A DNA stretch of 64,000 nt. Source: a virus. Below are positions 22,261-61,109 of this stretch, piece by piece (position 1 is the stretch's first letter; each line of letters opens with the position of its first letter). The stretch lies in the UHGV virus genome UHGV-0141541; one strand, written 5' to 3'. The position numbers and the translations under genes were made by a program. The notes beneath the pieces were generated by a model. It searched no databases. It saw only the letters and a program-made list of their open reading frames with translations, and was not told the DNA's origin.

Positions 22261-24294
22261 TTACTTAACCTGGTGGCCAGGTTTAGCACCAGCATCCGGG
22301 CTTAACAGGAAGATATCTTTCCCGCCGGGGCCAGCAGCCATCACCATGCCTTCAGAGATACCGAAGCGCATTTTACGCGGAGCCAGGTTAGCCACCATAA
22401 TGGTGTGACGACCAATCAGTGCCTGTGGATCTGGATAAGCGGAACGGATGCCTGAGAAGACATTACGCTTTTCACCACCGAGATCCAGCGTCAGGCGAAG
22501 CAGTTTGTCAGAACCTTCGACAAACTCCGCGTTTTCAATCAGCGCCACACGCAGGTCAACTTTGGCGAAGTCGTCAAAGGTGATGGTTTCCTGAATCGGG
22601 TCGTCAGCCAGTGGGCCAGTTACCGGTGCAGCTGTGGCTTTCACTTCTTCTTTGGATGCTTCCACCAGTGCTTCCACCTGTTTCATATCGATACGGTTAT
22701 ACAGTGCCTTGAACGGATTCACTTTATGGCCCAGCAGCGGTTGCTGGATACCATCCCAAGTCAGTTCTGTATTCAGGAATGCTTCTGCACGTTCAGTCAG
22801 TTTCGGCAGTACCGGTTTCAGGTACGTCATCAGCACGCGGAACAGGTTAATGCCCATAGAGCAAATCGCCTGCAGATCGGCATCGCGTCCTTCCTGCTTC
22901 GCCACCACCCACGGAGCCTGTTCATCGACATAGCGGTTAGCCAGATCAGCCAGCGCCATGATTTCACGAATCGCTTTACCAAATTCGCGGCTTTCCCATG
23001 CTTCACCAATCACTTCAGCGGCATCAGTAAAGGTTTTGTACAGTTGCGGGTCAGCCAGTTCGCCTGCCAGCACACCGTCAAAACGCTTATTGATAAAGCC
23101 CGCGTTACGGGACGCCAGATTCACCACTTTGTTCACGATATCGGCATTCACGCGCTGAACGAAATCCTCCAGGTTGAGATCGATATCATCAATGCGCGAA
23201 GAGAGTTTCGCAGTGTAGTAGTAACGCAGGCTGTCAGCGTCAAAATGATTCAGCCAGGTGCTGGCTTTAATAAAGGTGCCGCGAGACTTGGACATCTTCG
23301 CACCGTTCACCGTCACATAGCCATGAACAAACAGGTTGGTCGGCTTGCGGAAGTTGCTGCCTTCCAGCATGGCAGGCCAGAACAGGCTGTGGAAGTAAAC
23401 GATATCTTTACCGATGAAGTGGTACAGCTCGGCGGTGGAGTCTTTCTTCCAGTATTCGTCGAAGCTGGTAGTGTCGCCGCGTTTGTCGCACAGATTCTTG
23501 AAGGAACCCATGTAGCCAATCGGTGCGTCCAGCCAGACGTAGAAGTATTTGCCCGGTGCGTTCGGAATTTCAAAACCGAAGTAAGGTGCGTCACGGGAGA
23601 TATCCCACTGTTGCAGGCCAGATTCAAACCACTCCTGCATTTTGTTTGCCACCTGCTCCTGCAACGCACCGCTGCGGGTCCATGCCTGCAACATTTCGCT
23701 GAAAGAAGGCAGATCAAAGAAGAAGTGTTCGGAATCACGCATTACCGGTGTAGCGCCAGAAACCACTGATTTCGGCTCGATCAGTTCCGTCGGGCTGTAG
23801 GTCGCGCCGCAGACTTCACAGTTATCGCCGTATTGATCCGGCGCTTTACATTTCGGGCATGTGCCTTTTACAAAACGGTCCGGCAGGAACATGCCTTTTT
23901 CCGGGTCGTACAGCTGAGAGATGGTGCGGTTTTTAATAAAACCGTTCTCTTTCAGGCGAGTATAGATAAGCTCGGACAACTGACGGTTCTCTTCGCTGTG
24001 CGTCGAGTGATAGTTGTCATAGCTGATGTTAAAGCCTGCGAAATCAGTCTGATGTTCCTGACTCATTTCGCCAATCATCTGTTCCGGTGTGATACCAAGC
24101 TGCTGTGCTTTCAGCATGATTGGCGTACCGTGGGCATCGTCGGCACAGATGAAATTAACCTCGTGGCCGCGCATTCGCTGGTAACGAACCCAGACATCAG
24201 CCTGGATGTGCTCCAGCATATGGCCGAGGTGGATTGAGCCGTTAGCGTACGGCAGCGCGCACGTCACCAGAATTTTCTTCGCGACTTGGGTCAT
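22261..24294 (-). CDS. metG: methionine--tRNA ligase, host-type
   Basis: 677 aa starting [26 protein letters not shown] (HIGH motif), KMSKS present, C-terminal tRNA-binding domain; the 720-aa ORF-track start is an upstream extension. Confidence 0.95.
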
Positions 24295-24451: not shown

Positions 24452-25552
24452 ATGAGCGAGTCCAAATCGCCGGATGCCCTGAGAGCAATGGTAGCCGGTA
24501 CGCTGGCTAATTTTCAGCACCCAACCCTGAAACACAACCTGACTACGCTTAAAGCGTTACACCATGTTGCGTTGATGGATGACACACTGCATGTCGAACT
24601 AATCATGCCTTTCGTGTGGAATAAGCCTTTTGAAGACCTGAAAGAGCAATGTAGTGGTGATCTGCTCCGTATCACTGGCGCAAAGGCTATTGACTGGAAG
24701 CTGTCGTACAACATTGCCACGCTTAAGCGCGTCAAAAACCAACCAGGCATTAATGGCGTTAAGAACATTATCGCCGTCAGCTCAGGCAAGGGCGGCGTGG
24801 GTAAATCCTCCACGGCGGTAAACCTGGCACTGGCGTTGGCTGCTGAAGGTGCGAAAGTTGGTATTTTGGATGCCGATATCTATGGTCCATCAATTCCAAC
24901 CATGCTGGGCGCGGAAAACCAACGTCCAACCTCACCTGACGGTACTCACATGGCACCTATCATGTCTCATGGCCTGGCAACCAACTCTATTGGTTATCTG
25001 GTCACCGACGACAATGCAATGGTGTGGCGTGGACCGATGGCCAGCAAGGCGCTGATGCAGATGTTGCAGGAAACTCTATGGCCTGATCTGGACTATCTCG
25101 TTCTCGATATGCCGCCGGGCACTGGTGATATTCAGTTGACGCTGGCGCAGAACATTCCTGTAACTGGTGCGGTTGTGGTAACTACGCCGCAAGACATCGC
25201 GCTGATCGATGCGAAGAAAGGCATTGTGATGTTCGAAAAAGTCGAAGTGCCGGTACTGGGTATCGTTGAAAACATGAGTGTGCATATTTGCAGTAACTGC
25301 GGTCATCACGAGCCAATTTTTGGCACCGGTGGCGCACAGAAACTGGCCGAGAAATACAACACGCAGTTGTTAGGCCAAATGCCACTTCATATCTCTCTTC
25401 GTGAAGATCTGGATAACGGAACACCAACCGTTATTAGTCGTCCAGATAGCGAATTTACAGCTATTTATCGTGACCTCGCAGATCGCGTTGCTGCCCAAAT
25501 GTATTGGCAAGGTGAAGTAATACCTGGCGAAATCGCATTCCGCGCAGTGTGA
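24452..25552 (+). CDS. apbC: iron-sulfur cluster carrier protein ApbC/Mrp, host-type
   Basis: 366 aa; deviant Walker A SSGKGGVGKSS, CxxC motif (CSNCGH); divergent from metG with 157-bp intergenic region, the arrangement I recall for E. coli. Confidence 0.93.
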   Translation: MSESKSPDALRAMVAGTLANFQHPTLKHNLTTLKALHHVALMDDTLHVELIMPFVWNKPFEDLKEQCSGDLLRITGAKAIDWKLSYNIATLKRVKNQPGINGVKNIIAVSSGKGGVGKSSTAVNLALALAAEGAKVGILDADIYGPSIPTMLGAENQRPTSPDGTHMAPIMSHGLATNSIGYLVTDDNAMVWRGPMASKALMQMLQETLWPDLDYLVLDMPPGTGDIQLTLAQNIPVTGAVVVTTPQDIALIDAKKGIVMFEKVEVPVLGIVENMSVHICSNCGHHEPIFGTGGAQKLAEKYNTQLLGQMPLHISLREDLDNGTPTVISRPDSEFTAIYRDLADRVAAQMYWQGEVIPGEIAFRAV

Positions 25553-31553: not shown

Positions 31554-31614
31554 GTGTTTTTCTCTTATCGTTTAGTCACTAAATTCTTACACAAATTAAG
31601 TAAGTATTTACCTA

Positions 31615-33300
31615 TCATTTAACGCGTTTGAAAACGTATACGCTGACTGTGATCCCTGTGTCTTCAAACTCGTTGGTAAACGACTTCCCTCTGGCATAAA
31701 CGTAATTATCCATCGTCATCCAGTCCAGTATTGGCGCAGTGCCCGGCAATACTGCTACAAGACGCCCGCCGACTTTCAGATGCCCCAGCGCAGCCATCGT
31801 GTGCTCTCTATGACGACCAAGCGAGTACGGCGGGTTCATAACGATTTTGTCGAACTGATAACCTGCGTTGTCCTCAGACCACTTTATGAAGTCGCAGCAA
31901 ATCGTGTTCGTATACCCTTTTCCACGCAGGATATCAGCGAAGAGAGGTGCGATTTCTATGCAGGTAACATCTTCCAGATCGGCGTTAATATAGGCCAGAA
32001 GATCCCCACGTCCGGCTTGAGGCTCCAGCAGCTTCTCACCAGGCTTCAATTCAGTGGCTCTGGCAACGTACTCAGCAATCAAGCGTGGGGTAGGGTAGAA
32101 CTGGTGTGATTTTGTATCCGGTATTAAACCGGTAGCCACAATCGTATTTAGCGTATGGCCGATGTCATACGGGAACTGCCAGTGCTTTTTCTCCTGCACG
32201 CCGCCAATGAAGCTCAGTGTGCGCTCAAGCTCTTCCACATGCGACTTCTGGAGAGCTAAATCAGAGAAGTACCATACGCCTTTGTCTTTGCTCAATCGCC
32301 CGTCACGAAGCGCAGTGCGAACCGGCACGGAGATCGTCTTCTGGATTAACCCGAACTGCTTTGGTGCCCGTGTTTTTGGGGCAGTTCGGCATGGCGCGGG
32401 GATTGCAGCAGGCATACTGTAAGCCAGCACCTCATTCAACTTCCAGGCCACGTCAGGATGTATTTCAAAGTGAACGTTGCCGTTCTTGAACATCTTCACG
32501 CGCATCAGATTTCCATCGACGTTCATCCAGTCACCGGTCTGGCAGTCGTTTGCCCTATACGCAGCTGATAGCACCTCAGCAGTGCGGTTGATGGTAATAA
32601 ATTCTTTGTGCGCGAAGAAATGAAGCAAGACACGTAGATCGTCGATGTAGTCCTCTTTGCGATAGTTCACGCTAACGCTGTCCCGCCAGAAATCAGAAAT
32701 GCAGTCAGCGATTATCAGCCGCTCGCTGAAACCGTTTGTCTTATTTGTCTTGTGCGCAGGACTCAGCGCCTTAAACAAGCCATACACGCGCTCAGAGAGA
32801 TATTTGTGCCTGTCATTCAGTAAATTAAGCATCGTGGGTATGACCGTTTCTGCTTTGAACTCCGGTACACCAACGAACTCTTTAACCTTCATCTGGTAGC
32901 CGGTTCTGTCAGTTTTGATGACTTCCTGTTTGCCCTCTATAAACTGCTCGCGCCACTCATCTCGACGGGAAGCTGGCATGATCAGCAAAACGTTAGTCAT
33001 GTCCGTGACCTTCCTCCAGTACTCGGCCCAAATATTCTGTTTCACCCATTCCAGATCGACTTTATCCAACCAACCTCGATTTAAACGCGAGCGATCTTCA
33101 TCTGGTCGATGGTTTAGTCTCAGCAGGCGATTAATCATGTTGTGGCGTTCGTCGCCATAAACGAAGTCGTGTACCTGATACATGAAGGCGATCTCTTTCT
33201 CGCACTCGGCCACGATTTCGTGGATGACATTCATTTCCTGACGATAGTCGATAGCCGTGTTTGAGCTGGCATCGTCGATGATGGAAAGGGCTGTATTCAT
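31615..33300 (-). CDS. large protein with C-terminal gamma-class N6-adenine DNA methyltransferase domain
   Basis: 561 aa; motif X QFYPTP, motif I LLEPQAGRGDL, motif IV VMNPPY in the C-terminal ~200 aa; N-terminal ~350 aa unassigned. Confidence 0.7.
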   Translation of the reverse strand: MNTALSIIDDASSNTAIDYRQEMNVIHEIVAECEKEIAFMYQVHDFVYGDERHNMINRLLRLNHRPDEDRSRLNRGWLDKVDLEWVKQNIWAEYWRKVTDMTNVLLIMPASRRDEWREQFIEGKQEVIKTDRTGYQMKVKEFVGVPEFKAETVIPTMLNLLNDRHKYLSERVYGLFKALSPAHKTNKTNGFSERLIIADCISDFWRDSVSVNYRKEDYIDDLRVLLHFFAHKEFITINRTAEVLSAAYRANDCQTGDWMNVDGNLMRVKMFKNGNVHFEIHPDVAWKLNEVLAYSMPAAIPAPCRTAPKTRAPKQFGLIQKTISVPVRTALRDGRLSKDKGVWYFSDLALQKSHVEELERTLSFIGGVQEKKHWQFPYDIGHTLNTIVATGLIPDTKSHQFYPTPRLIAEYVARATELKPGEKLLEPQAGRGDLLAYINADLEDVTCIEIAPLFADILRGKGYTNTICCDFIKWSEDNAGYQFDKIVMNPPYSLGRHREHTMAALGHLKVGGRLVAVLPGTAPILDWMTMDNYVYARGKSFTNEFEDTGITVSVYVFKRVK

Positions 33301-33441
33301 AATTACACCATTAAATAATTTGTTTTCTGATTGGTGTAATTATCGCAAACTTGAAAAGGCATAAAAGCTGCATTCATAGGCGTTACAGCAGATTTAAGGC
33401 GTAAAAATGGGGGCTGTCGCCCCCTGTCGACTGGTGCTGTA

Positions 33442-34008
33442 TTAGAGTGCGTATTGCGTTTTGTGCGGCTGCTTATTCAAGTCATGGCGATGCGTGAGCT
33501 CCCGCATCATGTCTTCAAGGCGACTCTTTGTGTCGTCAAGCTGGTCGGCCATTGCACCTAAAAGCTGGCGAACGGCCATCGGATCGTCGCTGTTTAGTGA
33601 TGGCATTTTATAACCTGCTTTAGAAGACATAAGGTTGATTGCAGACATCAACATCGTTAGAGAGGATTTAAGCCCGGCAATTTCACGATCTTTGCTGGCA
33701 ATAATCGTCTCACTTTTGTTGCCGTCATCAGTTCCTTGAGTCTCGCTCACCATATCCAAAGTCGCTTGCAACTTATCAGCTCTCTCTTTTTCAGCAAGGT
33801 AATGAACACCGAAATGGTGTGCCAAAGCTACAATCTGAGTTGGCTCTTCAAAGGTGGAATTAAAATTAAGTATTGTAAACAGTCTCTCAAATATGGAAAC
33901 GTCTTCTATTCCTCGAAGAATGGCTAACATTTTGACAAGTTCATTAGCATCCATTTCTTCGAATAGGGCGTTTTGTTCATCAGCTATTGCTTTGCATTTC
34001 TCGCACAT
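33442..34008 (-). CDS. hypothetical protein
   Basis: 188 aa ORF preceded by motif family 1 copy at 34027-34058. Confidence 0.5.
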   Translation of the reverse strand: MCEKCKAIADEQNALFEEMDANELVKMLAILRGIEDVSIFERLFTILNFNSTFEEPTQIVALAHHFGVHYLAEKERADKLQATLDMVSETQGTDDGNKSETIIASKDREIAGLKSSLTMLMSAINLMSSKAGYKMPSLNSDDPMAVRQLLGAMADQLDDTKSRLEDMMRELTHRHDLNKQPHKTQYAL

Positions 34009-34305
34009 GTGTTTTCCTTAATGCTTAAACAAGTTGTTTTCTTATTGGCTTTATTGTGATGTGGCATATAAGGGGAGCAAGCTAAACGTAAAGGTGCAAA
34101 CTCTCTATTTCGGTCAACGAAACACAAGGGCCAAATGGCCCTTGTCATTAACACTTTGCTTTACGAACTAACGGATAAGCGAAGTAGATCGCCAAACCAA
34201 TGAGGACGCCATCAGAAATGACAGACATCATCTTTCCCGTAAAATCCACCAACACCGCCATCACCAGAAGAGCAATGACGATCACAAGCCGGAATCTCTC
34301 AAGCA

Positions 34306-34731
34306 TTAGAGATAAGCATCCAGTGACAACTGAAGCGCCTGGGCGATCTTTTTCAGTGCCTGCTCTTCTTGTTCACCAATGCCATCCTGATCGGCAATAT
34401 CAAGGCACAGACACAGAACATCGACCGCCTCTGGAGTACCCGCAATATCAGACAGCTCACGAATAGCCTGTGCATTAGCAGAACGAGGGGACGCTTCGTA
34501 ACGAGCACGGATATTGGCGCTCATTTGGGCAATTTCACCAGCAAACGGAGAAAACGCAGGCAGAGCTGCAATTGTCTTCTCAAGAATGGCAATTTCTTTT
34601 GCGTCACATGTGCCGTCGGCATAGGAGATCATGTACGCGCCCCACACGGTGGCCTCAACCGCATCACGGTTCTCCATTTTTTTGACTTCGATAACTGCTT
34701 TACGAGTTTTCTTTTTGAAGAAACCTAACAT
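34306..34731 (-). CDS. TerB-like domain protein (tentative)
   Basis: 141 aa; helical, ISYADG/EIAILE-type pattern reminiscent of TerB; RBS AAGGA; own upstream motif family 1 copy. Confidence 0.4.
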   Translation of the reverse strand: MLGFFKKKTRKAVIEVKKMENRDAVEATVWGAYMISYADGTCDAKEIAILEKTIAALPAFSPFAGEIAQMSANIRARYEASPRSANAQAIRELSDIAGTPEAVDVLCLCLDIADQDGIGEQEEQALKKIAQALQLSLDAYL

Positions 34732-34824
34732 GTGTTTTCCTTTTGTTATTTGTCAAAACAAGTTGTTTTCTAGTTAAATAAATTGCTTACGCAAAGACGG
34801 TCAATGCATATGCACTAACAACCG

Positions 34825-35013
34825 TCAGAAATAACCAAGTACCGAACCGACTGGAAAAATAAAAATCCCAACTACACGAGCCAAGGTCATGCCAGCCTGA
34901 AACTGGAGATCGCCAGAGCAAACAAGTTTTATAATGTTCGATACCCAACCGGCGGCCATGAGGGCAAGAATTGCCAGCCAAATTTTTCCAAAGTGATTTG
35001 AAAACCAGTTCAT
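34825..35013 (-). CDS. small two-TM membrane protein
   Basis: 62 aa with two hydrophobic segments. Confidence 0.45.
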   Translation of the reverse strand: MNWFSNHFGKIWLAILALMAAGWVSNIIKLVCSGDLQFQAGMTLARVVGIFIFPVGSVLGYF

Positions 35014-35022
35014 ACAACCGCC

Positions 35023-35517
35023 TTAGTCACAGCATGATCCTGAGTAACTGGATGAACTTGAGGTATCGCATCCACCGCCATCCCATCCAGAGTGACAGGA
35101 CGCTCCACTGGAGTGGTGGTAATTGTCGTCGACGAAGGTATGGTGATGGATGAATCCGGCATCAAAAGGCTCTGACCGGCTGGAACGGCTACCGTCGCCA
35201 GTGAAACTATAATGAGAACGTAGGCCATTGGTTTCAGCCTCTTTCTTTGAAAATTTTCCATTCGAACTGTCCTTGTTGTTTTTCTCCTTCACTAAAGGCC
35301 GTGCATTTTTCGCTTCGCGTGAAGAACCAGAGGCAACAATCGCCCCCACGTTCGCAACAACTGACGCTTGATTATCTAAACGTTCATTCAGCAACCGAAC
35401 GGTAGTCTCTAGTTCATCAAGGCGTGACATAACACGACCGCTAAATAATTCGGCCAAAATTTGACGTAAAGAACGAGGACGTTTAGTTACAGAAGTGAAA
35501 TAGGTTTGACGTGCCAT
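35023..35517 (-). CDS. hypothetical protein with coiled-coil N-terminus and S/G/C-rich tail; contains nested alternate-frame ORF
   Basis: 164 aa; nested ORF 35010-35261 encodes a Pro/Thr-rich protein with a signal-like segment. Confidence 0.45.
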   Translation of the reverse strand: MARQTYFTSVTKRPRSLRQILAELFSGRVMSRLDELETTVRLLNERLDNQASVVANVGAIVASGSSREAKNARPLVKEKNNKDSSNGKFSKKEAETNGLRSHYSFTGDGSRSSRSEPFDAGFIHHHTFVDDNYHHSSGASCHSGWDGGGCDTSSSSSYSGSCCD

Positions 35518-35665
35518 GTGGACTCCATCCAGTGTCAGAAAGAGTTGCGGCTGGCGATTGCCAGCCGCCTTTCTCGTTCCATCCTGGAACTGTGTCTTAC
35601 CGACACATTGTCATCCTGACGCCGATAAGATACATGATTTAAAATGATAGGTAAACACTTACTTA

Positions 35666-36256
35666 CTATTTGTTATAAACAAAACCAATATCTTTCTTGT
35701 GAGGCATATCTGCTGCTGAAAAAGCTGCGATCTTCGCGAGTCGATCACATATTTCATTTTCACGATGCCCGGCGTGACCTTTAACCCACTTCCAGCGAAC
35801 ATTATGTCGACTTGCGGCCTCATCCAGACGCTTCCACAGATCAACATTCTTTACCGGTTTTTTGTCAGAAGTCATCCATCCATTGCGTTTCCACCATTTC
35901 ATCCACTGTGTCATGCCGTTTTTCAGATACTGGCTATCAGAGTGCAAAATAACGTTGCATGGATATTTCAAACGCTCCAGCCCGATAAGTGCCCCCATCA
36001 TCTCCATGCGGTTATTGGTGGTGCTATGAAAACCATCTGAGAACTCGCGTTCCTCACCACGATACTGGAGAACGATACCGTAACCGCCCGGGCCACCCGG
36101 ATTTTTAAGGCAAGAGCCATCACTAAAGATTTTCACGGTTTTAAGCTGGGGATTGAACTCTACGACAGGCGTTGTGGGATTGGTGCGGGGAGAATTTTTG
36201 TTTTTGTCTTTTTTGCGAGTTTTTGCTTGCGATCGGGCTGGTGTCTTCGTCGTCAT
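35666..36256 (-). CDS. rnhA: ribonuclease H (RNase HI family) with basic N-terminal extension
   Basis: FSDGSC...GGYG...TNNRMEM...SDSQY...VKNVDLW...VKGHAGH..NE.CD pattern closely matches RNase HI; start set at MTTKTP (RBS AGGAG). Confidence 0.85.
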
Positions 36257-36837
36257 ATAAACTCCTGAATCAAGCGCCGCGCCGATTTTTCCTCGCGCGT
36301 GCGCACACGCGTGCGTGTTAATAATTATTAAAATAAACAAATTACTTCCCAGAACAGGTTTTTATAAACCTGAACTGAACGAACGAAGTGAGTGAAGTTC
36401 ACCTCGAACGAAGTGAGAGGTTGTCTTTTCAGGTAATACTCTCCCAGGGAGGTGAGTATAAAATTCCTCACCAACCTGGTCGTTTCATAACCTGAAAAGC
36501 TATGGTCTAAGTCTACTGCCAGCTTAGACTTGGGAAGTTATGGATGACAGCACCCCAGAACCGAGATCTTCCCACACTTTATGAAGGGGAGTACTGGATT
36601 CAACCTCTCGAAACACCCCAGACTCGACAATCATAAAGTGACCCTTGTCTCTGCTCACTTTGGTTCCCCCTTCCCCGACACCTATACGGCACCGGTTCTA
36701 CGCTGGTAGTGAGCTTTTTTAAACCTGACGCCAGTGACGCTTACCCCCACCCATCAGGTCGAGCCTCCAGTCTACGACTGGAAACTATCAGATCTTAGCA
36801 CTTACAATTCACTTTATGAATAGTTTGTACTTATCTA

Positions 36838-37254: not shown

Positions 37255-37848
37255 CTAAGCAGCCTTCTTTGATGGTCTTTTTTTCCTGATCACATTCGCA
37301 GGATCATACCCTCCCAGACTTTTCATGACGTCCAAAGGGATCTTGCTTATAGAGTGCCCAGCGTCCTGACAGAATCCTCGAAAAACAACGAGCATACTGC
37401 CACCTGGGTTGATGTTTACTTCTACCTGACCCAGATTGACGTCAGGCTCGACAAACGCTACGCGGCCACCAGACAGAATAATCGTCTCATTCGCACACTC
37501 TGTTGCACGCTCATACCACTTTGTATCTAGGGATTGAGGAATTAGCATCACTGTTGTAACTCCGCGAGCCTGCTCACGTATAGCCGCATCAATCCAGGGG
37601 GAGATTTTGGAGTAGGGTGGATTGAGGAAGGCAATTGTACCTGGCTGTCCCCATTCAGATTTCAAAGCATCACGCTCAACGCCTATGAAATTAGGCAGCT
37701 TTGCATTGTCCTTGTTGCAGGCAACGTCAACATCAAATGTCACTCCAAGATAACGTTGAATGGCAGAAAACAGCCAGTCAGGTGTTCTCCAGAGGTCACG
37801 AAGAGAGTTGTCGCGCTTTCGCTGTTTGATTTTTTCGGCTGCAATCAT
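37255..37848 (-). CDS. dam: DNA N6-adenine methyltransferase (phage Dam-type)
   Basis: 197 aa; WRTPDWLF, FDVDVA, FLNPPY motifs typical of small phage Dam methylases. Confidence 0.75.
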   Translation of the reverse strand: MIAAEKIKQRKRDNSLRDLWRTPDWLFSAIQRYLGVTFDVDVACNKDNAKLPNFIGVERDALKSEWGQPGTIAFLNPPYSKISPWIDAAIREQARGVTTVMLIPQSLDTKWYERATECANETIILSGGRVAFVEPDVNLGQVEVNINPGGSMLVVFRGFCQDAGHSISKIPLDVMKSLGGYDPANVIRKKRPSKKAA

Positions 37849-38031
37849 CTTCTTTCTCGATAGGTAAGTAAATACCTATTTTTGCATTTGATTATATGTC
37901 TGGCAATCAAATAAAACGCGCCAGAAATGCAAACGAGAAGCTCTCTGGCGCGTTTTTGTGGTGCTGGGTATGTGATTGGCTTACCCAGCACTATAAAGCT
38001 CTCTATGGGCTTTATTTTCAGTAGGGGAACG

Positions 38032-38841
38032 TCATCCAATAGTGTACTCCGCGACAAACTTCTTAACGATCGGTGATTCTTCGTTCAATGTTAGATTTCC
38101 ACCGTCTCTAACGGCAATTCCTGTCGCTGGAAATACAGCCATCATTTGCCCAGCCTGAGTTGACGCAGTGTTAAGCGGATACGGTTTTTCTGGATTGCTC
38201 ATTAAAGCAATCTTAATACTATTACTTGTAGCCTTCTTTTCTGTGAGAAGGTGTCTCATGGAAATTACCGTGTAAACACTAATATCTGGACCTCCGCTAA
38301 ACCAATTAAGAAGGTTTAATATCTTATCCTTTGCTTTGACAGGCGCGTTATCGTAAGCGTCTAAGAAAATATCTTTTTCTAAGCCCGCTTTATTGAAAAA
38401 CGAATCATCTTTATCACTTAAAGTAAAACGCGGACCTCTTGCAGTACGAGCTTTTTTATTTGTATTGCTATCATTTGACTGTTGAACTTTTAATTCATCA
38501 TTAACCTCAACACACTCTTCAACCTCAATAAATCCCAATTGTTCTGGCTCGTTTTCGGCAGCTTCAACACTTTCAGCGTTAATTACGTTTATAGGCTCAT
38601 GCGCTAACTCCAACTCATTTAAAGCAGAGCTGAAATCACCTGTTTTTTCTTCATTGAACAGTTCTTCGGCAACATCATCAGAACTCATGGCTACGCCAGC
38701 ATCTAGGCCGAGCAGCAGATCGTCAATATCATCAGTATTTTCAACCTGTGCAGCTTTTTTTACTGGTTCATCAAGTGATTGCAACATGGCTGTCAGCTCG
38801 TCCAGATCATCATTTGTCATTACATTTTCAACCGAACTCAT
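38032..38841 (-). CDS. hypothetical protein with very acidic N-terminal half
   Basis: 269 aa; D/E-rich N-terminus; followed by two hairpins at 37925-37995. Confidence 0.5.
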   Translation of the reverse strand: MSSVENVMTNDDLDELTAMLQSLDEPVKKAAQVENTDDIDDLLLGLDAGVAMSSDDVAEELFNEEKTGDFSSALNELELAHEPINVINAESVEAAENEPEQLGFIEVEECVEVNDELKVQQSNDSNTNKKARTARGPRFTLSDKDDSFFNKAGLEKDIFLDAYDNAPVKAKDKILNLLNWFSGGPDISVYTVISMRHLLTEKKATSNSIKIALMSNPEKPYPLNTASTQAGQMMAVFPATGIAVRDGGNLTLNEESPIVKKFVAEYTIG

Positions 38842-38999
38842 GTAAGTCTCCTTCTGTTTGGTTACATTTGCGTTTCGATGGCTACATTTTGACTAAACCT
38901 ATCAGGCGGAAAAGTATTAAATACAGGCAGGAAATGATTGAAAGGCGACTGTTCTTTAAAAGAAAGCCTACTTTAAACTTTTTAAAGTAGGCTTTTGTT

Positions 39000-60992: not shown

Positions 60993-61109
60993 GTGTTTCT
61001 CCTTGTTGTGATTTGGCCGATGGCGCTATGCGCGTTGGGCTTTCGTTCATTCGTGGCTCTTTCGAGCTGTTAAATGATAGATCAGTACTTACTTATTATC
61101 TATCAAAAA

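Follow-up and report, generated by a model that had tools for sequence, protein, structure and literature searches.

Organization of the locus

The window, by which we mean the whole 64,000-nt stretch of DNA analysed here (UHGV virus genome UHGV-0141541), belongs to an SSU5/pHCM2-like phage-plasmid of E. coli, matches NZ_CP107145.1 at 99.996%, and is related to SSU5, Cyrano, and phage-plasmids of Klebsiella. The locus lies between rnhA and a TerB gene, in an early replication and nucleotide-metabolism region that holds nrdAB, thyA, dhfr, an exonuclease gene, dam, and rnhA, and every gene at 34,148-35,517 is carried on the minus strand. At its center is a pair of overlapping genes, referred to below as the outer and the nested gene, and the 1.6-kb region around this pair is matched by 450 plasmids in PLSDB. 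The features of the locus, in order of coordinate, are as follows.

34124..34145, minus strand: terminator-like hairpin 3' of the DUF3927 gene (consensus scan only)
34148..34306, minus strand: gene for a DUF3927/P1 TciB-like small membrane protein (Pfam PF13064, E 3.4e-12; phrog_1470)
34306..34731, minus strand: TerB-family gene, P1 TciA-like (Pfam PF05099, E 2.4e-7; phrog_632)
34825..35013, minus strand: gene for a 62-aa protein with two hydrophobic segments (phrog_6006)
35010..35261, minus strand: putative nested +1-frame gene, 83 aa (residues 12-83 match phrog_15659)
35023..35261, minus strand: putative dual-coding stretch of 239 nt (frame 0, outer tail; frame +1, nested gene)
35023..35517, minus strand: outer gene, 164 aa (phrog_10411)
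35518..35669, minus strand: conserved leader upstream of the outer gene (promoter-like element, structured RNA, SD)

Much of this arrangement had been anticipated in the original prediction. An outer ORF with a helical N-terminal half and an odd low-complexity C-terminal half is indeed present at 35023-35517, as are the Pro/Thr-rich second-frame protein with a hydrophobic start (35010-35261, KD17 1.8-2.8 in all lineages), the 62-aa protein with two transmembrane (TM) segments (34825-35013, KD17 1.86 and 1.92), and the TerB-like neighbor (34306-34731, 31.5 bits against a PF05099 gathering cut-off of 24.4). The outer, nested, and 62-aa proteins all match families of unknown function, the first over residues 1-164 of the 169 positions of phrog_10411 (E 7e-79), the second with residues 12-83 on positions 1-72 of 72 in phrog_15659 (E 5.9e-46), and the third against the phrog_6006 profile (E 2e-25).

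The outer protein, which is labelled a hypothetical protein in RefSeq, Cyrano, and SSU5, is predicted by AF2 to form a single long amphipathic helix (residues 17-70, pLDDT up to 93), with the remainder of the chain disordered. Its last 60 residues are 73% Ser, Gly, His, Cys, Asp, and Thr, the tail ends in Cys-Asp-stop in every case, and the protein has no hydrophobic segment (maximum KD17 0.35-1.25 across six lineages). A RiPP- or microcin-like reading of the Ser/Gly/Cys tail was considered and dropped, as the gene has neither modifying enzymes nearby nor a leader motif. The AF2 models of the outer and nested proteins have pLDDT values of 55.6 and 54.5, and each consists of one helix plus disorder.

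Downstream, the TerB gene shares ~75% nucleotide identity with P1 tciA and was found in 41 of the 64 loci with enough flank; judged by this distribution, it is a variable neighbor outside the core pair. The adjoining DUF3927 gene is likewise no constant companion of the pair. In P1 the TerB-like tci genes form a 'tellurite/colicin resistance or inhibition of cell division' cassette, a function that the P1 record assigns by homology only, and a literature search on tci function found nothing. The hairpin at 34124-34145 is a possible 3' end of the transcription unit.

A probable second gene in the +1 frame

The start that had been proposed for the second-frame product, MAYVLIIV behind an AAGAGG ribosome binding site, did not hold up. 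That methionine is codon 12 of the nested ORF (ATG at 35228) and is unconserved, being Ile or Leu in lineages L080 and L077, and AAGAGG is likewise unconserved, SSU5 having no SD at that site. The conserved start lies 11 codons upstream, at the ATG at 35261; each of the six deep lineages has ATG or GTG there, and the codon is preceded, 8 nt upstream, by a purine-rich SD-like AAGGA (35270-35274), a motif also kept in six of six. Nor is this gene fully embedded, as the word nested would imply: offset by +1 from the outer frame in each of the six lineages, it runs on for 13 nt past the outer stop (10 nt in L077). The start, the SD, the stop-start overlap with the following gene, and the hydrophobicity pattern are all conserved.

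The nested protein opens with a positive N-terminus, MENFQRKRLKP (net charge +1 to +3 over the first 11 residues in the six lineages), continues into one hydrophobic helix (MAYVLIIVSLATVAVPA) and a linker rich in Pro and Thr, and carries the conserved motif L[DE]GMxxDxIP...VT toward its C-terminus; LLMPDSSITIPSSTTITTTPVER is an example of a peptide from this frame. Hydrophobicity peaks at residues 10-29 (KD17 1.8-2.8, six lineages), and AF2 places a helix at residues 3-24. The product has the positively charged n-region and the h-region of ~15-20 hydrophobic residues expected of a Sec-type signal peptide or signal anchor, and in most lineages candidate signal peptidase I sites, with small residues at -3 and -1, can be placed by eye after a conserved Pro (G-Q-S↓L, T-Q-A↓L, S-Q-A↓L), with L080 a poor fit. 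A literature search for Ribo-seq or proteomics covering either frame found none, and a search on SSU5_091/092 and on the overlap likewise returned nothing.

Both frames are open in all 42 distinct full-length variants, which were drawn from 71 loci, and in three further deeper lineages (L077, L080, and L082). Across the six deep lineages there are no stops in the two coding frames, as against 1-9 in each of the other four, and the outer and nested frames co-occur in every lineage. If the residues of the outer tail are fixed and synonymous codons are chosen at random, the +1 frame is stop-free with a probability of 0.43-0.72, or of 0.09 for the Klebsiella type. That this frame is open is by itself unsurprising; its conservation, on the alignments, is far beyond chance.

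These probabilities are what would be expected if the +1 ORF were a non-coding by-product of a stop-poor, Ser/Gly/His/Asp/Thr-rich tail, its conservation stemming from the outer gene or from RNA structure, and the ORF is indeed unannotated in four of the five annotated records checked (RefSeq NZ_CP107145.1, Cyrano, SSU5, and pJN2-26). The pattern of substitution nevertheless makes such an origin highly improbable. Among three deep clades, the fraction of variable columns at outer third positions falls from 0.76 outside the overlap to 0.38 inside it (p = 1.3e-6), so that the outer third positions become the least variable sites of the overlap. In outer numbering the three codon positions of the overlap have variable fractions of 0.57/0.51/0.38, and in nested numbering 0.42/0.32/0.56, which is a coding pattern; with all six lineages the values are 0.36/0.29/0.56 for the nested frame vs 0.51/0.41/0.41 for the outer tail. 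Variability therefore follows the nested frame in both period and phase, being lowest at nested position 2, and a three-base periodicity is not expected from RNA structure. The nested protein is also the best conserved of the three segments compared, with a mean pairwise amino acid identity over the six lineages of 0.49 (outer tail 0.40, outer N-terminal half 0.39), and its start, SD, hydrophobic helix, C-terminal motif, and ATGA persist where outer identity is only ~27-40%.

Synonymous divergence gives a similar picture. At conserved residues, synonymous differences amount to 0.57 in non-overlapping reference genes vs 0.19 in the outer frame of the overlap (p = 5e-13) and 0.41 in its nested frame (p = 0.0013), these pairwise p-values being inflated because clade comparisons share ancestry, and the column-based three-taxon tests being the safer figures. 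By NG86, dN/dS is 0.35-0.47 in the nested frame, where dS is 0.7-0.8 vs 1.25 or more; in the outer tail dN/dS is 0.93-1.79, and dS drops as far as 0.32-0.45 vs 1.25 or more. The non-overlapping half of the outer gene has a normal coding signature (0.52/0.37/0.76 at the three positions, dN/dS 0.22-0.26). Polymorphism within clades, just 42 changes (NN/SN 0.87, NN/NS 0.72), is too sparse to discriminate selection by frame, and codon usage was uninformative as a clue to the ancestral frame, all segments lying within or near the weakly biased range of the genome.

The embedded gene pair that had been suspected is thus borne out, in that the nested frame bears a coding substitution signature and is kept in every relative found. 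As to whether only one frame is conserved among relatives, the answer is mixed: by naive dN/dS the nested frame looks constrained and the outer tail does not, although the outer tail finds support in its staying open, in its Cys-Asp-stop ending, and in the depressed dS of the nested frame.

Is the outer tail functional?

The weaker signal of the outer tail raises the alternative that function in the 3' half belongs to the nested gene alone, with the outer gene encoding a helical protein of ~85-100 aa followed by a tolerated, functionless tail. The overlap does lack coding periodicity in the outer frame and has the high naive dN/dS given above, and the tail is low in complexity and predicted to be disordered. 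Moreover, the conserved outer motifs coincide with nested ones (SGWD with LDGM, and CCD-stop with AVTK), and the nested gene could account for part of the conservation of the tail. Yet, given the nested residues, the outer frame would be open with a probability of just 0.04-0.12 per lineage, and it is open in six lineages and in the 42 variants. The position of its stop is homologous throughout the six lineages, and the three four-fold degenerate nested third positions that spell Cys-Asp-stop (xxT GTG/GCG ACT) are invariant in six of six. Synonymous divergence in the nested frame is depressed by both measures, and the most diverged homolog, P0058 (~25-30% identity), keeps a His-rich tail ending in Cys-Asp. 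A functionless tail is, in light of these observations, improbable. Both frames seem to be under selection, the nested one more strongly, with the outer tail apparently being kept.

It could also be imagined that programmed +1 ribosomal frameshifting fuses the outer N-terminus to the nested C-terminus. Such fusions recur in the databases: the T4 run CCTTTTG is the point of fusion in four clusters (P0011, P0013, P0014, and P0018), and others are joined at different points (L056, L070, P0022, P0024, P0026, and P0047). These are, however, DNA-level 1-nt indels at many different sites, of the kind expected where two open frames meet assembly errors or pseudogenes. The T4 run is unconserved, the SSU5 type having GAGTCTGTTGAT, no conserved slippery site or stimulator was seen, and a start and SD of its own are conserved in the nested gene. 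We consider frameshifting exceedingly unlikely.

Taken together, the comparative evidence argues that the overlap is in all probability a genuine out-of-frame dual-coding pair, specific to SSU5/pHCM2-like phage-plasmids of Enterobacterales and organized in the manner that we propose below.

The 62-aa gene and the case against a role in lysis

The 62-aa gene begins within the nested stop, its ATG sharing the sequence ATGA (35010-35013) with the nested TGA; in the Klebsiella type the overlap is GTGA, and ATGA or GTGA is kept wherever the 62-aa gene occurs. This gene is present in most relatives and missing from some, and is therefore not a constant neighbor. Distant stand-alone homologs of its product are encoded by Aeromonas, Vibrio, and Acinetobacter phages. 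Holins typically end in a charged C-terminal tail, and a holin reading of the 62-aa protein was rejected: the protein has no such tail, and its phage homologs lie among early hypothetical genes, not lysis genes.

A small two-TM protein next to an overlapping gene pair does recall the lysis genes of phage lambda. In lambda Rz/Rz1, as here, both genes are phage-borne, the second gene lies in the +1 frame inside the first or overhanging it, the small product is rich in Pro and begins with a hydrophobic segment, and the larger product has a long, coiled-coil-like helix. The pair might on these grounds be a two-component spanin that disrupts the outer membrane during lysis, partnered by the 62-aa protein in a holin-like role. 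Spanins, however, combine an i-spanin that has an N-terminal TM segment with an o-spanin that is a lipoprotein with a lipobox Cys, and they are encoded next to the holin and endolysin. Unlike Rz, the outer protein lacks a TM segment in every lineage (its maximum KD17 never exceeds 1.25), and unlike Rz1, the nested product shows neither a conserved Cys nor a lipobox. The E. coli, SSU5, L080, and L082 types lack Cys, and where one does occur, in the Klebsiella type (LITIC) and in L077 (LAVC), its context is non-canonical. There is no sequence similarity to Rz/Rz1. Nor does the pair belong to a lysis cassette, lying instead among replication and nucleotide-metabolism genes. In Cyrano the holin, endolysin, Rz, and Rz1 are annotated elsewhere, at 26.7-28.2 kb, and a Cyrano-type lysis cassette, 94% identical and including an Rz with an N-terminal TM segment, lies at 37715-38997 of NZ_CP107145.1, outside the window and ~55 kb from the pair. 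The original prediction had itself regarded an Rz/Rz1 reading as unsupported, and we concur: the defining features are absent in six of six lineages, the likelihood of a spanin is close to nil, and on its sequence features the pair is not one.

A conserved, structured leader

Upstream of the outer gene, the leader carries a promoter-like TTTACC-17-TATCTT inside a repeated 23-nt motif (35642-35664). The ~95 nt of RNA that follow this element are predicted to fold into three hairpins closed by a long-range helix. Hairpin 3 presents GGA in its loop (CAGGAUG), and a second CAGGAUG is found in the 5' arm of the closing helix, where it would be in a loop only in an alternative local fold. A GC-rich hairpin at 35547-35568 is followed by the SD GGAG at 35523-35526.

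Conservation of the leader is far above that of coding DNA. A covariance model of it (R1) hits each of 35 loci exactly once, with 98% of cells paired vs 34-49% in slid controls, and covariation is seen at six of six pairs in helix 2 and at three of five in helix 3. A search of Rfam gave no family, the sole match being weak and CsrB-like (E 0.09).

Proposed organization and role

We postulate that a single mRNA with a structured leader carries the outer gene, the product of which would be a cytoplasmic protein made up of a long helix and a disordered His/Cys/Ser/Gly-rich tail ending in Cys-Asp. The same mRNA would be read in the +1 frame from the internal SD and the ATG at 35261 to give the 83-aa protein, the N-terminus of which may act as a signal peptide or signal anchor. 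Export of this product would place a Pro/Thr-rich peptide of ~50 residues, bearing the LDGMxxDxIP motif, outside the inner membrane. Since the nested stop overlaps the start of the 62-aa gene (ATGA), translational coupling of the nested gene and the two-TM gene would follow. Export, internal initiation, coupling, and any physiological role are all inferred.

With regard to function, searches of the outer, nested, and 62-aa proteins against Pfam, NCBIfam, PADLOC, and PDB sequence profiles returned no known function above noise, and a profile search of 1.84 billion representatives yielded 20 hits, none with known function. With no homology to families of known function to go by, the role that we suggest is a guess from topology and neighbors. 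It is tempting to speculate that the locus is an envelope-directed accessory module of small cytoplasmic, membrane, and periplasmic proteins, perhaps active in superinfection exclusion or in envelope or metal stress rather than in lysis, although we regard this as a tentative proposal that could well be wrong. A more elaborate version, which strikes us as more doubtful still, is that of a new, small trans-envelope module in which a cytoplasmic helical protein with a metal-binding-type His/Cys tail, an exported Pro/Thr-rich peptide encoded by the same DNA, and a coupled two-TM protein would serve these same ends while the plasmid is carried, under the control of a CsrA-type or other protein- or ligand-responsive leader switch (CAGGAUG/GGA).

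SSU5/pHCM2-like phage-plasmids are common in clinical E. coli, Klebsiella, Salmonella (including Typhi), Shigella, and Cronobacter, and a conserved gene has apparently been missed in four of the five records of the family that were examined (RefSeq NZ_CP107145.1, Cyrano, SSU5, and pJN2-26). The case also suggests that what looks like an 'odd low-complexity tail' can betray a second gene. Behind its conserved structured leader, the locus offers a compact group of possibly envelope-directed small proteins as candidates for exclusion, stress, or regulatory roles; should the products do nothing special, this would be just another overlapping gene pair of unknown function.

Comparison with known systems

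Among known systems, the tciA-tciB-tciC cassette of P1 resembles the downstream flank of the locus, in that 34148-34731 encodes homologs of P1 TciA and TciB with ~75% nucleotide identity. Unlike our locus, P1 has no homolog of the overlapping pair or of the 62-aa gene beside tciA, and SSU5 and other relatives retain the overlapping pair without TerB. The neighbors of tciA in P1, upl, plp, and tciC, were considered as counterparts and rejected, their sequences being unrelated.

Phages are known to encode small membrane or periplasmic proteins for superinfection exclusion, such as Imm and Sp of T4 and gp15 of HK97. The products described here resemble these proteins in their small size, in having an N-terminal hydrophobic segment or two TM segments, in an early or lysogenic expression context, and in lacking an enzymatic domain. 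The analogy is a functional one only; PADLOC found nothing, and no similarity of sequence or fold could be shown.

The overlap itself can be compared with overprinted genes of small phages and viruses, for example A*/B/K/E of phiX174, in which disorder and odd composition are typical of the overprinted regions. As in phiX174, one stretch of DNA would encode two proteins, with the synonymous variation of one frame suppressed by the other, and both products are predicted to be disordered and are compositionally odd in the overlap. Unlike phiX174, the pair resides in a phage-plasmid of ~110 kb, a large dsDNA element under no obvious pressure to compress its genome. The locus may provide a clean example, open to testing by comparative analysis, of dual coding over a long out-of-frame overlap in such a mobile element, one for which compression is not the obvious driver.

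Results

The window and its relatives belong to the SSU5/pHCM2-like phage-plasmids, elements of ~110 kb. Around the gene pair, 1.6 kb is 100% identical to the E. coli plasmid pS2-S1K81-2 (NZ_CP107145.1) and 95-98% identical to Escherichia phages CMS-2020a, Cyrano, and PhiR41_1, and window positions 3270-53202 form a 49.9-kb alignment with the same plasmid at 99.996% identity. Every gene of the region around the pair lies on the minus strand, in the following order:

35666-36260 (-), rnhA, first in gene order
35518-35669 (-), core ~35523-35620, conserved structured leader, 5' of the outer gene
35023-35517 (-), outer ORF, 164 aa, the gene directly after rnhA
35010-35261 (-), nested ORF in the +1 frame, 83 aa counted from the first ATG
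34825-35013 (-), 62-aa ORF, encoding a two-segment protein
34306-34731 (-), TerB gene (P1 TciA-like)
34148-34306 (-), DUF3927 gene (P1 TciB-like)
(-), 188-aa hypothetical gene, then a DUF4942 methylase gene, last in order

In the wider surroundings, nrdAB, thyA, dhfr, exonuclease, and dam genes serve replication and nucleotide metabolism. The constant unit of the locus is the outer/nested pair; the TerB and DUF3927 genes are found in 41 of 64 loci, and the 62-aa gene, whose family also occurs on its own in Aeromonas, Vibrio, and Acinetobacter phages, is absent from the deeper lineages L077 and L080 and from eight further loci. In Klebsiella phage GArcari-2022b (L005, 3164-5233, minus strand), an opposite-strand 689-aa ORF replaces the 62-aa gene, which points to the position 3' of the pair as a cargo-exchange hotspot. 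Elsewhere in the window, two host-like genes, for methionine--tRNA ligase (metG) and an Fe-S carrier (apbC), lie between phage regions at 22261-24294 and 24452-25552, a stretch that looks like a captured chromosomal segment; these coordinates were transferred from the annotated plasmid with 99.996% identity.

When the amino acids of the outer tail (the C-terminal part that overlaps the nested ORF) were fixed and synonymous codons drawn randomly, the share of trials without a stop in the +1 frame was 43-72% for E. coli-type and SSU5-type sequences and 9% for the Klebsiella type. The presence of the nested ORF alone is not beyond chance; evidence must therefore come from evolution, and relatives were gathered by tblastn against phages and from 62 viral and 4 genome loci, and profile searching of 1.84 billion representatives added three deeper lineages. 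Both frames are open in all 42 distinct full-length variants, in every one of which the nested frame ends 13 nt past the outer stop, its stop codon sharing bases with the next start codon in ATGA or GTGA (here the ATGA at 35010-35013, formed by the nested TGA and the ATG of the 62-aa gene). Among six deep lineages, outer-protein identity is as low as 14-40%, and the overlap contains no stops in the outer and nested frames and one to nine in each of the other four. The most distant lineages retain the same plan in the nested ORF, an N-terminal M-E-x-[FY]-Q-x-K-x-L-x-P followed by a hydrophobic helix, a Pro/Thr-rich linker, L[DE]GMxxD, and ...VTxA.

The original prediction had placed the nested start at MAYVLIIV, preceded by AAGAGG. 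The conserved start is further upstream, an ATG or GTG across lineages (window 35261); at Met12, which opens MAYVLIIV, L077 has Leu and L080 has Ile, and no SD precedes this codon in SSU5. A purine-rich SD-like motif stands 7-10 nt 5' of the upstream start (AAGGA at 35270-35274; TGGAGA or CGGAAGG in other lineages), and the longer N-terminus brings a positive n-region, RKRLKP, as expected before a signal or anchor helix. AF2 predicts a single confident helix at residues 17-70 of the outer protein (eight-sequence alignment) and mostly disorder at 71-164 (pLDDT <50 at 68-87, 93-96, and 98-164), and, for the nested product, a helix at 3-24 with disorder beyond.

The nested ORF is unannotated at this locus in RefSeq, Cyrano, SSU5, and pJN2-26, four of the five annotated records examined, and is included in a few NCBI, ENA, and Logan gene calls. 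It matches PHROG family phrog_15659 (E 5.9e-46), the outer protein matches phrog_10411, and the 62-aa protein phrog_6006, all three without assigned function. Pfam, NCBIfam, PDB, and defence-system searches found no relative, and the family is scarce, with 20 representatives in total among 1.84 billion clusters.

In representatives of the three main clades, the half of the outer gene that lies outside the overlap has the pattern of a normal gene, the fractions of variable columns at codon positions 1/2/3 being 0.52/0.37/0.76. Within the overlap, outer numbering gives 0.57/0.51/0.38, the third position being the least variable site (a fall from 0.76 to 0.38, p = 1.3e-6), and nested numbering gives 0.42/0.32/0.56, a normal coding pattern whose minimum at position 2 counts against an antisense frame. 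Over six lineages, the nested values are 0.36/0.29/0.56 versus 0.51/0.41/0.41 for the outer tail, and the nested protein has the highest mean identity of the three segments (0.49; the others 0.40 and 0.39). Where a residue is conserved between clades, the reference genes (outer N-terminal half, 62-aa gene, rnhA) use different codons in 57% of cases; the share is 19% for the outer frame within the overlap (p = 5e-13) and 41% for the nested frame (p = 0.0013), p-values that are generous because the compared pairs share ancestry. The dN/dS ratio (NG86) is 0.22-0.26 for the outer N-terminal half, 0.35-0.47 for the nested gene, and 0.93-1.79 for the outer tail, where dS has collapsed to 0.32-0.45. 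Taken together, the position pattern, codon differences, and dN/dS indicate that the nested frame is genuinely coding and exerts the dominant constraint on the overlap.

The outer frame has no codon periodicity within the overlap, and outer-tail motifs coincide with nested motifs, as they might if the tail were a functionless run-on of the reading frame through the nested gene. We consider such a run-on improbable: with nested amino acids fixed and codons randomised, the outer frame is expected to be open in only 4-12% of draws for each lineage, yet it is open everywhere, and its stop occupies the identical homologous position in six of six lineages. Invariant in all six, too, are the three nested third positions of four-fold degeneracy by which the outer Cys-Asp-stop is encoded (xxT GTG/GCG ACT); nested synonymous divergence is below that of non-overlapping genes, and the most diverged outer homologue keeps a His-rich stretch and the terminus ...SGCD. 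Judged from these comparisons, the outer tail is probably also under selection.

A likeness to Rz/Rz1 spanins had been raised and judged unsupported, and our results agree: the outer protein has no TM segment (17-residue Kyte-Doolittle mean <=1.25), the nested product has neither a conserved Cys nor a lipobox, and the lysis cassette is elsewhere, its holin, endolysin, Rz, and Rz1 genes following those for the tail fibre in the Cyrano annotation. The homologous cassette of NZ_CP107145.1 (37715-38997, 94% identical, Rz with an N-terminal TM) lies ~55 kb from the pair, outside the window. Programmed frameshifting was likewise rejected, as database fusions of the outer N-terminus to the nested C-terminus stem from 1-nt indels at many positions. 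Four fusion clusters share a T4 run (window 35164-35167, minus strand, CCTTTTGATG) that is not conserved in other clades, and fusions at other sites include loci L056 and L070; in the public entries, a 1-nt deletion gives a 168-aa product and cuts the nested ORF after its signal-like segment. These entries are probably assembly errors or pseudogenes rather than recoding.

The 150 nt from rnhA to the outer ATG are far better conserved than coding DNA. A promoter-like TTTACC-17-TATCTT in this leader (score 8/12, under the scan threshold) is followed by ~95 nt of structure, three hairpins within a closing long-range helix. A covariance model finds exactly one copy per locus (35 of 35), and 98% of alignment cells are paired versus 34-49% in slid controls, the alignment being fitted to the model and so favouring structure; pairs covary at 6/6 positions in helix 2, 3/5 in helix 3, and 2/9 in helix 4, and helix 1 is invariant. 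Two copies of the 7-mer CAGGAUG are present, one in the hairpin 3 loop and one in the closing helix, on its 5' arm (there a loop only under an alternative local hairpin), with an additional GGA within the SD of the outer gene; these motifs resemble CsrA sites. Rfam has no family for the leader, yielding at most a weak CsrB-like match (E 0.09), and the leader may be a new cis-regulatory RNA.

Across the leader runs an antisense 43-aa 'ORF' (35511-35642, plus strand; pJN226_0020 in pJN2-26) whose protein sequence appears conserved in relatives; since the structured leader on the other strand explains this conservation, the ORF is probably not a gene. A 37-nt inverted repeat (31584-31620 (+) and 35642-35678 (-), 84% complementary) flanks a 4.0-kb block from the DUF4942 methylase gene through the outer/nested pair. 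Its 23-nt core, AAGTAAGTRTTTACCTATCATTT, has three copies in the window versus zero expected in shuffles, the third at 61072-61094 (-), and the copy at 35642 includes the -35-like TTTACC; the repeat could act as an operator or promoter motif or mark the boundary of a cassette. The near-palindromic motif AAACAAGTTGTTTTCT (33313-33328, 34027-34042, and 34756-34771) precedes three minus-strand genes in a row (DUF4942, 188-aa, and TerB), ~20-25 nt 5' of each start, and the 188-aa and TerB genes have the identical SD/start context AAGGAAAACACATGT (34005-34019 and 34728-34742), an arrangement resembling a common operator or 5' UTR module.

Discussion

In our judgement the nested gene is almost certainly real, and there is a good likelihood that both genes are. 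The pair sits in the early region, with a conserved hydrophobicity pattern and a conserved internal start, SD, and stop-start overlap with the 62-aa gene. We postulate that one transcript would give three products: a cytoplasmic helix protein whose tail is rich in His, Cys, and Asp, as is typical of metal-binding tails; a Pro/Thr-rich peptide, made by internal initiation, that would be exported or membrane-anchored; and, via coupling, a 2-TM protein. Perhaps, going by topology and neighbours, these products have an accessory role directed at the envelope, for instance in exclusion or envelope/metal stress, which we propose only tentatively.

No description of the pair, of its conservation throughout a phage-plasmid family of wide clinical occurrence, or of its omission from annotation was apparent in the literature searchable here. 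The kind of finding is not new, since phages are well known to have out-of-frame overlapping genes. The neighbouring TerB/TciB cassette is common to P1 and this locus, at ~75% nucleotide identity.
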